Shown here: one piece after another, positions 3,523-8,122 of the stretch
Layout: each line of letters begins with the position of its first letter
How positions within the stretch are numbered: the stretch's first letter is position 1
From: Escherichia coli
Lineage (GTDB): Bacteria; Pseudomonadota; Gammaproteobacteria; Enterobacterales; Enterobacteriaceae
Assembly (NCBI RefSeq): GCF_003018255.1
Contig: NZ_CP027440.1
DNA length: 64,000 nucleotides
Direction: 5' to 3' (one strand)
Notes under the pieces: model-generated
Told to the model about the DNA's origin: nothing
Database searches by the model: none
Seen by the model: only the letters and a program-made list of their open reading frames with translations
Position numbers and translations under genes: made by a program

Positions 3523-4189
3523 CCATTTAGCAGGGAATAATAAGAGAGGGAACTCATTTTGAAATCATTATTCAATCGGTTAACGGGAAAAGCGGTTAGC
3601 CGGACAGCTTTCGTCGAACATCTTGGTCATGAAGTTGTACAACATCATCCAAACTGGAAAGTCATGATTTCGACTGACCATAAATTGATGCGCATTGATG
3701 CTCCACCAAACAGCCATTATTGATACGCCTCCGTCGCCTGTTAGGTTTATGGTGTTTTGCCTTGGCGACGCTACGCTTAATCTGTTACTGATTTCTGGTA
3801 CCATGGGGGGAATAATCTGATTTTATTTGATTGCAAATTAACCACTTAAACCTATTGAATGCGGAACATTGTCAGTCGGTTAATTTTGCGTGCTTTAGCA
3901 TTCACATCTTTCCGGACGATGCAGTGAAAATTGCGTAATCCTCAGCAACCGCTGCGTAATGTCGTCTATCTTGTCGCGATCCTGGCATCCCTACATTATT
4001 TGTGGTCTGTGAAGATTATCTCATTGCAGCCCCTCATCTTCGCAGGGCTGGCTTTACAGCTTTTCACCCTACGTTATAAGAAGTTCCGTCGATGATGGCG
4101 CTAATTTCGTGAATTGTGCGGCTTGTTGCAAATTACACGGTGTTGAAGGTTATTTACATGTTAGCTGTTGATTATCTTCCCTGATAAGA

Positions 4190-4499
4190 CCAGTATTTAG
4201 CTGCCAATTGCTACGAAATCGTTATAATGTGCGACCTCGTCCTCCCTGACGCAGTTTTTGCGCTGCGGAAAAGGTGACATTGGCGCAACGAAGGTATATT
4301 TTGTTTTTTGCCGGAGGATAGCAGCAGATCGCTGCACAATGTCCGTCAAGTCTAACATTGACACTCTGGGGCAAAATAGACCGGCGTCCCGGCCTGCTGG
4401 AATTTATCGCTATGCATACAGCTGTCGGGGCATACGCTTTACAGACGGCGGTGAAACGCCTGTCACAATCACACTAAACAAAGAGTACGGAACCCACTC
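4190..4499 (+). promoter_or_regulatory. Putative accBC promoter and long untranslated leader
   Basis: Perfect TATAAT at 4223-4228 about 270 nt upstream of accB ATG; accBC is known to have a long leader; -35 not convincingly identified. Confidence 0.3.
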
Positions 4500-4980: not shown

Positions 4981-6330
4981 ATGCTGGATAAAATTGTTAT
5001 TGCCAACCGCGGCGAGATTGCATTGCGTATTCTTCGTGCCTGTAAAGAACTGGGCATCAAGACTGTCGCTGTGCACTCCAGCGCGGATCGCGATCTAAAA
5101 CACGTATTACTGGCAGATGAAACGGTCTGTATCGGCCCTGCTCCGTCAGTAAAAAGTTATCTGAACATCCCGGCAATCATCAGCGCCGCTGAAATCACCG
5201 GCGCAGTAGCAATCCATCCGGGTTACGGCTTCCTCTCCGAGAACGCCAACTTTGCCGAGCAGGTTGAACGCTCCGGCTTTATCTTCATCGGCCCGAAAGC
5301 AGAAACCATTCGCCTGATGGGCGACAAAGTATCCGCAATCGCGGCGATGAAAAAAGCGGGCGTTCCTTGCGTACCGGGTTCTGACGGCCCGCTGGGCGAC
5401 GATATGGATAAAAACCGCGCCATTGCTAAACGCATTGGTTATCCGGTAATTATCAAAGCCTCCGGCGGCGGCGGCGGTCGCGGTATGCGCGTAGTGCGCG
5501 GCGACGCTGAACTGGCACAATCCATCTCCATGACCCGTGCGGAAGCGAAAGCTGCTTTCAGCAACGATATGGTTTACATGGAGAAATACCTGGAAAATCC
5601 TCGCCACGTCGAGATTCAGGTACTGGCTGACGGTCAGGGCAACGCTATCTATCTGGCGGAACGTGACTGCTCCATGCAGCGCCGCCACCAGAAAGTGGTC
5701 GAAGAAGCACCAGCACCGGGCATTACCCCGGAACTGCGTCGCTACATCGGCGAACGTTGCGCTAAAGCATGTGTTGATATCGGCTATCGCGGTGCGGGTA
5801 CTTTCGAGTTCCTGTTCGAAAACGGCGAGTTCTATTTCATCGAAATGAACACCCGTATTCAGGTAGAACACCCGGTTACTGAAATGATCACCGGCGTTGA
5901 CCTGATCAAAGAACAGCTGCGTATCGCTGCCGGTCAACCGCTGTCGATCAAGCAAGAAGAAGTTCACGTTCGCGGCCATGCGGTGGAATGCCGTATCAAC
6001 GCCGAAGATCCGAACACCTTCCTGCCAAGCCCGGGCAAAATCACCCGTTTCCACGCACCAGGCGGTTTTGGCGTGCGTTGGGAGTCTCATATCTACGCGG
6101 GCTACACCGTACCGCCGTACTATGACTCAATGATCGGTAAGCTGATTTGCTACGGTGAAAACCGTGACGTGGCGATTGCCCGCATGAAGAATGCGCTGCA
6201 GGAGCTGATCATCGACGGTATCAAAACCAACGTTGATCTGCAGATCCGCATCATGAATGACGAGAACTTCCAGCATGGTGGCACTAACATCCACTATCTG
6301 GAGAAAAAACTCGGTCTTCAGGAAAAATAA
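4981..6330 (+). CDS. accC: Biotin carboxylase subunit of acetyl-CoA carboxylase
   Basis: 449 aa from ATG 4981 ([16 protein letters not shown]); ORF-track start 4942 is an in-frame upstream extension into accB. Confidence 0.97.
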
Positions 6331-6346
6331 GACTGCAAAAGCGTCA

Positions 6347-6373
6347 AAAGGCCGGATTTTCCGGCCTTTTTTA
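6347..6373 (+). terminator. Rho-independent terminator after accC
   Basis: GGCCGG-ATTTT-CCGGCC hairpin followed by TTTTTT; positions checked against an overlapping ORF frame. Confidence 0.8.
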
Positions 6374-6438
6374 TTACTGGGGATCGACAACCCCCATAAG
6401 GTACAATCCCCGCTTTCTTCACCCATCAGGGACAAAAA

Positions 6439-6681
6439 ATGGACACTCGTTTTGTTCAGGCCCATAAAGAGGCGCGCTGGGCGCTGGGGCTGACCCTTTT
6501 GTATCTGGCGGTATGGTTAGTAGCCGCTTACTTACCTGGCGTTGCCCCCGGTTTTACCGGTTTTCCGCGCTGGTTTGAGATGGCCTGCATCCTGACGCCG
6601 CTGCTGTTTATTGGACTGTGCTGGGCGATGGTGAAATTTATCTATCGCGATATCCCACTGGAGGATGACGATGCAGCTTGA
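6439..6681 (+). CDS. yhdT: Small DUF997 membrane protein YhdT
   Basis: 80-aa ORF with two hydrophobic segments; 3' end overlaps panF start by 11 nt. Confidence 0.85.
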   Translation: MDTRFVQAHKEARWALGLTLLYLAVWLVAAYLPGVAPGFTGFPRWFEMACILTPLLFIGLCWAMVKFIYRDIPLEDDDAA

Positions 6682-8122
6682 AGTAATTCTACCGCTGGTC
6701 GCCTATCTGGTGGTGGTGTTCGGTATCTCTGTTTATGCGATGCGTAAACGGAGCACTGGCACCTTCCTTAATGAGTATTTCCTCGGCAGCCGCTCTATGG
6801 GCGGTATTGTGCTGGCGATGACGCTCACCGCGACCTATATCAGTGCCAGTTCGTTTATCGGCGGGCCTGGAGCTGCTTATAAATACGGCCTGGGCTGGGT
6901 ATTGCTGGCGATGATTCAGCTTCCTGCAGTCTGGCTTTCGCTCGGTATTCTCGGCAAGAAGTTCGCAATTCTTGCGCGCCGCTACAATGCGGTGACACTG
7001 AACGACATGCTGTTTGCCCGCTACCAGAGTCGTCTTTTGGTGTGGCTGGCGAGTTTGAGTTTGCTGGTCGCGTTTATTGGCGCGATGACCGTGCAGTTTA
7101 TCGGCGGCGCGCGCCTGCTGGAAACCGCGGCGGGTATTCCTTATGAAACCGGGCTGCTGATTTTCGGTATCAGCATTGCGTTGTATACCGCCTTTGGTGG
7201 CTTTCGCGCCAGCGTGCTGAACGACACTATGCAAGGGCTGGTGATGCTGATTGGCACCATTGTGCTGCTTATTGGCGTGGTACATGCCGCAGGTGGCTTA
7301 AGCAACGCAGTAGAGACGTTGCAAACCATCGATCCGCAACTGGTTACGCCACAAGGCGCTGACGATATTCTGTCGCCTGCCTTTATGACGTCGTTCTGGG
7401 TACTGGTGTGCTTTGGCGTGATTGGCCTGCCGCATACTGCGGTGCGCTGTATCTCTTATAAAGACAGCAAAGCCGTACATCGGGGGATCATCATCGGTAC
7501 GATTGTGGTCGCAATCCTGATGTTCGGTATGCACCTGGCCGGAGCGTTAGGTCGGGCGGTGATCCCCGATCTCACCGTACCGGACCTGGTGATCCCGACG
7601 TTAATGGTAAAAGTGTTGCCACCGTTTGCTGCCGGGATCTTCCTGGCTGCACCTATGGCTGCGATCATGTCGACAATTAACGCCCAACTGCTGCAAAGTT
7701 CCGCTACGATCATTAAAGATCTCTATCTGAATATCCGTCCGGATCAAATGCAAAACGAGACGCGTCTGAAGCGGATGTCGGCGGTAATTACGTTAGTTCT
7801 CGGTGCGTTGCTGCTGCTTGCCGCCTGGAAGCCGCCAGAAATGATCATCTGGCTGAATTTGCTGGCCTTCGGTGGGCTGGAAGCCGTTTTCCTGTGGCCG
7901 CTGGTACTGGGTCTTTACTGGGAACGCGCCAACGCCAAAGGCGCGCTAAGTGCGATGATTGTTGGCGGCGTACTGTATGCCGTACTCGCGACGCTGAATA
8001 TTCAGTACCTGGGCTTCCACCCTATCGTGCCCTCGTTACTACTAAGTTTGCTGGCTTTCCTGGTCGGAAACCGTTTCGGTACATCCGTCCCGCAAGCTAC
8101 CGTTTTGACTACTGATAAATAA
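6671..8122 (+). CDS. panF: Sodium/pantothenate symporter PanF (SSS family)
   Basis: 483 aa from ATG 6671 ([10 protein letters not shown]); multi-pass membrane protein recognised from translation. Confidence 0.95.

Follow-up and report, generated by a model that had tools for sequence, protein, structure and literature searches.

YhdT, a small DUF997 protein, is a candidate accessory partner of the sodium/pantothenate symporter PanF

The small inner-membrane protein YhdT is probably a dedicated partner of the sodium/pantothenate symporter PanF, most likely acting as an accessory subunit whose synthesis would immediately precede that of PanF on a shared mRNA. We favor this reading with moderate confidence on the basis of gene order and sequence conservation. 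In Escherichia coli, the yhdT and panF reading frames overlap and the panF ribosome-binding site lies within yhdT, and this junction anatomy is conserved. The linkage between the two genes is strict, holds in both directions, and crosses phyla. Moreover, the YhdT protein is under purifying selection. From these observations we infer that YhdT may associate physically with PanF and affect its activity or stability, and that translation of the two genes may indeed be coupled.

Organization and conservation of the yhdT-panF junction

The window analyzed is a stretch of 64,000 nucleotides from the E. coli chromosome (contig NZ_CP027440.1), in which the local order is accB, accC, an intrinsic terminator, yhdT, panF, prmA, dusB, and fis. 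The relevant features of this region are as follows.

6346 to 6370, plus strand: intrinsic terminator located 3′ of accC, consisting of an 11-pair stem followed by a T run
6371 to 6438, plus strand: 5′ region of yhdT, between the accC terminator and yhdT
6439 to 6681, plus strand: yhdT coding sequence, 80 amino acids, DUF997, predicted two-helix membrane hairpin
6660 to 6665, plus strand: panF Shine-Dalgarno sequence GGAGGA, within YhdT codons L74-E75-D76
6665 to 6667, plus strand: alternative in-frame panF ATG, which would make the overlap 17 nt
6671 to 6681, plus strand: yhdT/panF overlap of 11 nt, from the panF ATG to the yhdT TGA
6671 to 8122, plus strand: panF coding sequence, sodium/pantothenate symporter, 483 amino acids; PF00474, TIGR02119
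8134 to 9015, plus strand: prmA, beginning 11 nt 3′ of the panF stop codon on the same strand

The yhdT open reading frame comprises 80 codons and ends with the TGA stop codon at positions 6679 to 6681. The original prediction that yhdT overlaps the start of panF by 11 nt is evident in the sequence and agrees with the RefSeq annotation, which likewise places the panF start at the ATG at position 6671. Two in-frame ATG codons are present between positions 6665 and 6673 (ATG ACG ATG). The GGAGG sequence at 6660 to 6664 is separated by 6 nt from the ATG at 6671 and by 0 nt from the ATG at 6665, and this spacing makes the former the better panF start. Several other Enterobacterales carry ATGATG at the equivalent location, and the true N terminus of PanF may differ by one or two residues among species.

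When one genome per species was scanned for a DUF997 motif, 281 loci were confirmed, and the best 80 of these, all from Enterobacterales, were analyzed. In every one of the 80 loci, panF is located directly downstream of yhdT. An overlap of exactly 11 nt, counted from the panF start codon (73 ATG, 6 GTG) through the last base of the yhdT stop codon, is found in 79 of the 80 species, and the junction conforms to the consensus CTGGAGGAnnnnnATGnnnnnTGA. The panF Shine-Dalgarno sequence is kept as CTGGAGGA in nearly all of these 80 loci. In Izhakiella (positions 4233 to 4249 of contig L054), the downstream ATG has been lost and the ATG located 6 nt upstream is the only start, which results in an overlap of 17 nt. 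Given that the genes overlap in 80 of 80 species, the overlap and the Shine-Dalgarno sequence inside yhdT constitute a conserved trait of Enterobacterales rather than an accident of one genome. One record, labeled Chryseobacterium sp. 18061 (CACSKA010000008.1), carries an Enterobacteriaceae-like YhdT (83% identical) and PanF (91%) with the 11-nt junction, and is probably a contaminant or mislabeled.

The terminator that follows accC sets the accBC transcript apart from yhdT-panF. A simple scan revealed no sigma-70-like promoter in the interval from 6371 to 6438, nor anywhere between 6250 and 8300, and yhdT has only a weak Shine-Dalgarno sequence of its own, AGGGA at a distance of 9 nt. The prmA gene probably shares a transcription unit with panF. 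The order accB-accC-DUF997-panF-prmA-dusB also is found in a distant metagenome contig (L083, 1126 to 7285) that encodes a YhdT 43% identical to that of E. coli, and wherein the spacer between accC and the DUF997 gene is ~570 nt versus 108 nt in the window. Farther upstream in the window, the interval between yhdH/acuI and accB (3559 to 4400; 260 to 796 of contig L001) contains a RefSeq 54-amino acid hypothetical protein and a truncated pseudogene. The latter is a decayed remnant of a YedZ-like sulfoxide reductase heme-binding subunit that is unrelated to yhdT-panF.

Among 5,425 E. coli genomes, there are 1,422 in which the match to window positions 6300 to 6900 begins only at 6440, and in these strains a D-tagatose utilization cluster of ~8.6 kb resides between accC and yhdT (window 6331 to 6440; 412 to 8999 of contig L175). 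This island is already known from strains of the B2 phylogroup (PMC9720028). Its insertion between accC and yhdT means that the whole 5′ region of yhdT, including the promoter, differs in those strains. The 11-nt yhdT/panF overlap is unchanged in them. One predicted protein of 184 amino acids (P0125) is a chimera that joins a DeoR helix-turn-helix and part of a DeoR sensor domain to the C-terminal two-thirds of DUF997. Because the DeoR regulator of the tagatose island is encoded just 5′ of yhdT in B2-type E. coli, this chimera looks like the product of a deletion or misassembly rather than a real fusion.

Linkage of DUF997 and PanF genes across bacteria

The open reading frame downstream of yhdT in the window corresponds to the SSF family of Pfam (PF00474) and to the panF equivalog TIGR02119 (759 bits versus a cutoff of 328), which places it among the sodium/solute symporters (SSS). 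The best 80 loci matched by a narrow DUF997 alignment (A4) were Enterobacterales only, and phylogenetic breadth was obtained from eight single-protein contigs and from a metagenome scan with a distant PanF. All eight distant DUF997 representatives, which are 31 to 47% identical to YhdT, are followed directly and in the same direction by a PanF-type gene. Thus, PanF is encoded downstream of DUF997 in 88 of 88 loci overall (80 from Enterobacterales and 8 distant). The eight distant junctions include overlaps of 11, 11, 8, 4, 4, and 4 nt and gaps of 9 and 43 nt. The downstream partners are 44 to 69% identical to E. coli PanF, compared with ~26% for PutP and ~22% for ActP, and each of the eight exceeds the TIGR02119 cutoff of 328 with scores of 523 to 701 bits.

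The neighbors of these distant pairs are otherwise unlike, and include glucokinase, TetR, and DctMQ genes in one contig (L086), a PAS-GGDEF gene in another (L089), and coaX in a third (L091). In this last metagenome contig (755 to 3457), coaX, coding for a type III pantothenate kinase (PF03309), is followed by the DUF997 gene and a PanF-type SSS gene, with overlaps of 20 nt between coaX and DUF997 and 4 nt between DUF997 and the SSS gene. As judged by gene context, the presence of coaX is an independent tie of the DUF997-PanF pair to pantothenate metabolism. Pantothenate transport by E. coli panF is established in the literature, and panF is synthetic-lethal with panB, panC, panD, and panZ (PMC5120140). 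For distant members of the PanF clade, the same activity is putative and is suggested by contexts such as this one.

The reverse relationship was evaluated by a metagenome scan seeded with a PanF alignment in which the most divergent partner was placed first, an arrangement that made the best 80 matches diverse. A DUF997 open reading frame is located directly upstream and on the same strand in 77 of the 77 PanF-type loci that could be assessed among these best 80 matches. The remaining three end within 51 nt of the panF start and were excluded. The 80 loci form 25 clusters at 80% identity and encode proteins that are 48 to 93% identical to E. coli PanF. Source names assign members of the sampled pairs to Desulfovibrio, Synergistales, and Aeromonas, among others, besides Enterobacterales. 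The modal junction is an overlap of 11 nt in two clusters, 8 nt in four, 4 nt in nine, and 1 nt in four, and is a gap of 5 to 53 nt in six. The genes therefore overlap in 19 of the 25 clusters, and a Shine-Dalgarno core is present within the 3′ end of the DUF997 gene in 21 of the 25 when junctions are read by eye.

Co-occurrence of DUF997 genes with SSS symporters had been named as a check on the original prediction, and its outcome is strongly positive, with 88 of 88 loci from the DUF997 side and 77 of 77 from the PanF side, in samples that were both seeded from pairs already having a partner and from which PanF relatives lacking DUF997 could escape. As read from these loci, the linkage is two-way, cross-phylum, and specific to the PanF clade (TIGR02119). 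The earlier wording, wherein DUF997 genes adjoin SSS symporters, holds for this clade but is too broad for SSS proteins in general.

Features of the YhdT protein

YhdT matches the Pfam family DUF997 (PF06196) with an E value of 2.8e-28 (98.1 bits versus a cutoff of 26.3) and NCBIfam NF007918 with 167.6 bits (cutoff 107), the latter an entry named only “hypothetical protein”. No functional study of YhdT or DUF997 was found in the searchable literature. AlphaFold2 predicts a two-helix hairpin with helices spanning residues 3 to 31 and 44 to 67 (mean pLDDT 91), in line with the earlier description of YhdT as a small protein with two transmembrane segments. A search of 1.8 billion representatives at 50% identity recovered only 100 clusters related to YhdT, indicating that DUF997 is a small family.

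Forty-seven diverse DUF997 members aligned with YhdT are 29 to 56% identical to it. Among the resulting 48 diverse members, P43 is invariant, and conservation is at least 90% for E11, W26, W45, F46, and C50. The conserved residues of YhdT are E11, L18, W26, A30, Y31, G41, P43, W45, F46, S/A49, C50, F/Y69, and L74. In an alignment of 84 DUF997 sequences (effective number 51), conservation clusters at the start of helix 1 (E11-A12), along this helix (L18, Y22, W26, A30, and Y31), and at the turn and the start of helix 2 (G41-x-P43-x-W45-F46-x-x-S/A49-C50). Conserved residues are retained even by lineages with a different junction. Among them is the C-terminal motif F/Y69-x-D/E-x-x-L74-D/E75, which persists in lineages that have longer tails and whose Shine-Dalgarno sequence sits elsewhere. 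The L-E-D segment thus belongs to the protein and doubles as the panF Shine-Dalgarno sequence in Enterobacterales.

The YhdT protein is under purifying selection. The median dN/dS among Enterobacterales is 0.15 for yhdT (73 non-overlapping codons) versus 0.06 for panF, where a dS of ~1.2 makes these values rough. At non-synonymous sites, YhdT evolves ~2.3 times faster than PanF, and the length of its acidic cytoplasmic tail varies. Conservation of a particular helical face, as measured by the helical moment, is not significant (~0.1), with 194 and 241 of 2000 shuffles reaching the observed value for the two helices. The group of YhdT proteins that carry the membrane-embedded residue E47 is exactly the Enterobacterales, and a hunt for a compensating PanF residue was fully confounded.

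Basic residues flank the YhdT helices on the N-terminal (R4, K10) and C-terminal (K66, R70) sides. The positive-inside rule then predicts that the N and C termini face the cytoplasm and that the conserved turn faces the periplasm. SSS proteins begin outside the cell (N-out). If the ends of YhdT are cytoplasmic, then a simple YhdT-PanF fusion would be topologically impossible, which fits the lack of natural fusions. Indeed, none of the 100 representative clusters contained a natural DUF997-SSS fusion. One match of 637 amino acids (P0174) was rejected as a low-complexity false positive. In a human-gut contig (L152, 1594 to 2001), DUF997 is split over two reading frames, whereas it is intact in ~20 sister contigs from the same cluster. 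This split reflects either a frameshift pseudogene or a sequencing error.

We also modeled a fused chain, PanF-(G4S)6-YhdT, with AlphaFold2 from a 22-row paired alignment. The resulting model reaches a pLDDT of 79.7 and a pTM of 0.82, and the output, comprising pLDDT and pTM only, is uninformative on docking. The YhdT helices have pLDDT values of 83 to 92 in the fusion versus 92 to 97 alone. A Foldseek search with the fusion model recovered only the SSS fold. The solved folds closest to the PanF model are human SGLT1/2, SiaT, NIS, CHT1, and vSGLT, and no solved structure of YhdT, PanF, or YjcH was found.

Translational coupling, published genetics, and possible roles of YhdT

In coupled overlapping gene pairs of bacteria, the stop and start codons overlap and the Shine-Dalgarno sequence of the downstream gene resides within the upstream open reading frame. 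The yhdT-panF pair is similar in its 11-nt stop-start overlap, in the location of the Shine-Dalgarno sequence inside yhdT, and in the occurrence of the overlap in 80 of 80 Enterobacterales. It is dissimilar in that no conserved structure masks the panF ribosome-binding site, and the case for coupling comes from this anatomy. The consensus RNA structure computed over the panF ribosome-binding site from 21 species (RNAalifold) contains 0 pairs. The minimum-energy fold of the E. coli sequence does pair the Shine-Dalgarno sequence with panF codons, but its z value is only -1.33, and an RNA structure that hides the panF start is not supported. Such masking is one possible mechanism of coupling and is not required for it.

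The original prediction stated that the overlap implies translational coupling. The overlap and the Shine-Dalgarno sequence inside yhdT are compatible with this proposal, but the wording was too strong given that panF has its own strong Shine-Dalgarno sequence, that no conserved masking RNA is found, and that 6 of the 25 PanF clusters have gapped junctions. These gaps of 5 to 53 nt indicate that coupling has not been obligatory in evolution. Judged by the junction, coupling of yhdT and panF is plausible, and it is not needed to explain why the pair stays together.

Published genetic data are relevant to the function of YhdT, agree in direction with a partnership with PanF, and were absent from the original prediction. 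Of the genes screened in a genome-wide synthetic array, four alone (recA, recC, panF, and yhdT) showed synthetic lethality with each of panB, panC, panD, and panZ (PMC5120140). The Keio yhdT deletion behaves like the panF deletion with regard to panB, panC, panD, and panZ, which the authors attributed to disruption of panF or polarity, as the genes overlap (PMC5120140). This phenotype would fit a need for YhdT, a reliance of panF translation on coupling, or simple polarity. The Keio design reportedly retains the last seven codons of each deleted gene. If so, GAGGA and the panF ATG would be left in place, and polarity of the yhdT deletion is not self-evident.

Gene linkage backs the portion of the original prediction that assigns YhdT a role as a partner of PanF, and an accessory subunit is the form of partnership we consider most likely. 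YhdT would form a two-helix hairpin whose termini are cytoplasmic and whose conserved G-x-P-x-W-F-x-x-S/A-C motif is located at the turn on the periplasmic side and at the beginning of helix 2, and would be synthesized from one mRNA directly before PanF. Because the panF ribosome-binding site is located in the last yhdT codons and the frames overlap, ribosomes that finish YhdT may be delivered to the panF start or may keep it open. In this way, YhdT and PanF would be synthesized together and would enter the membrane next to each other.

Other roles would explain some of the same observations. YhdT could regulate PanF rather than serve as a structural subunit, binding the transporter to tune or inhibit uptake according to, for example, CoA or pantothenate status, much as other transporters are modulated by small membrane proteins. 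The linkage evidence is the same for a regulator as for a subunit, and the ~2.3 times faster non-synonymous evolution of YhdT and the variable length of its acidic cytoplasmic tail would suit such a function. However, the Keio yhdT phenotype, if not polar, mimics the loss of panF, which is the opposite of what is expected upon losing an inhibitor. A regulatory role also seems unlikely to us in that strict 1:1 linkage and overlapping translation suit co-assembly better than conditional regulation. A factor for PanF biogenesis or assembly, which helps the first helix, with its N-out orientation, to insert or fold or shields newly made PanF from degradation and is absent from the mature transporter, would be expected to be made immediately before PanF from the same mRNA, to show strict DUF997-PanF linkage, and to yield a panF-like phenotype when lost. 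The observations fit such a factor and a stable subunit alike. The parallel proteins MAP17, DUF4212, and DUF485, which are considered below, are instead described as subunits or components of transporters, and we judge an assembly factor to be quite unlikely.

Conservation of the YhdT protein across phyla, with an invariant P and with E, W, W, F, and C at nearly invariant positions, argues against the proposal that yhdT is a translated leader only, whose translation brings ribosomes to the panF start or exposes this start and whose peptide is without function. This proposal draws on the overlap and the Shine-Dalgarno sequence within yhdT in 80 of 80 Enterobacterales (79 at 11 nt, 1 at 17 nt) and on the fact that the Keio yhdT deletion phenocopies the panF deletion (PMC5120140). 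We nonetheless regard it as very improbable given the yhdT dN/dS of 0.15, the retention of the DUF997 gene even when a gap of 5 to 53 nt is present, the strong Shine-Dalgarno sequence that panF itself has, and the lack of a conserved RNA that masks the panF ribosome-binding site, where the single-sequence fold (z = -1.33) is not unusual. Similarly, we see scant chance that the function of YhdT has nothing to do with PanF and that YhdT is a mere neighbor in a conserved operon. Although the whole accBC-yhdT-panF-prmA-dusB-fis region is syntenic in Enterobacterales, the pair persists when all other neighbors change (L086, L089, and L091), and DUF997 is present in all 25 PanF clusters examined. 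This explanation is therefore already disfavored.

The general idea of a small partner for an SSS transporter, on which our preferred assignment of YhdT as a PanF subunit draws, has precedents. Like YhdT, YjcH (DUF485, PF04341) is a small two-helix membrane protein whose gene is located directly 5′ of an SSS permease gene, actP, and overlaps its start, in this case by 4 nt in E. coli. DUF485 was called a transporter component by Price et al. based on RB-TnSeq cofitness with the adjacent SSS permease, without signs of polarity (10.1101/072470). The two systems differ in that ActP belongs to another SSS clade (PanF is ~22% identical to ActP), and in that the role of DUF485 draws on fitness data whereas that of DUF997 is proposed from gene linkage. 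Homology between DUF997 and DUF485 was considered and rejected, as hhalign returned a probability of 9.8% over 15 columns in a comparison wherein the YjcH profile was shallow (12 sequences, 75 to 100% identical).

A second precedent is DUF4212 (TIGR03647), which was predicted to be a small subunit from its hydrophobicity and conserved context and was later found to have cofitness with the downstream permease (10.1101/072470). The pairing of DUF4212 with SSS proteins of the VC_2705 family (TIGR03648) follows the same logic as that of YhdT with PanF, wherein a small subunit is proposed from gene context. However, neither the small-protein family nor the SSS subfamily is shared, and PanF matches TIGR03648 weakly (71 bits versus a cutoff of 321). 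Likewise, a DUF3311 gene adjoins, and is co-regulated with, the gene for the MctP monocarboxylate SSS permease (PMC9100948). Here again a small DUF gene lies beside an SSS permease gene and the association rests on context and co-regulation, but the families are not those of DUF997 and PanF.

Among eukaryotes, MAP17 (PDZK1IP1) is a small membrane accessory subunit of the human SSS/SLC5 transporters SGLT1 and SGLT2, and the SGLT1/2 chains that are closest in fold to the PanF model come from MAP17 complexes. In contrast to YhdT, MAP17 has a single helix and an unrelated sequence, and its complex has been solved whereas that of YhdT and PanF is hypothesized. In sum, the YhdT-PanF pair resembles the DUF485, DUF4212, and DUF3311 pairs but belongs to none of those families, with the sequence comparison covering DUF485.

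These parallels raise a broader prospect, which we advance tentatively as something that could well prove wrong. PanF may be an obligate two-protein YhdT-PanF transporter in every lineage that has PanF, and bacterial SSS permeases may have acquired unrelated two-helix partners (DUF997, DUF485, DUF4212, and DUF3311) on repeated, independent occasions, in parallel with MAP17 in animals. This fold could then have a general and overlooked need for a small peripheral subunit.

PanF is the textbook importer of pantothenate (vitamin B5) in E. coli, and it figures in metabolic models, in studies of the uptake of coenzyme A precursors and antimetabolites, and in strain engineering. If PanF needs YhdT, then it would be misleading to express panF alone, to model transport as the product of one gene, or to ascribe yhdT phenotypes to polarity. 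If our assignment is correct, DUF997 would constitute a fourth, unrelated family of small subunits for bacterial sodium/solute symporters, where relatedness was compared by sequence for DUF485, and the parallel with MAP17 and SGLT proteins would be strengthened.
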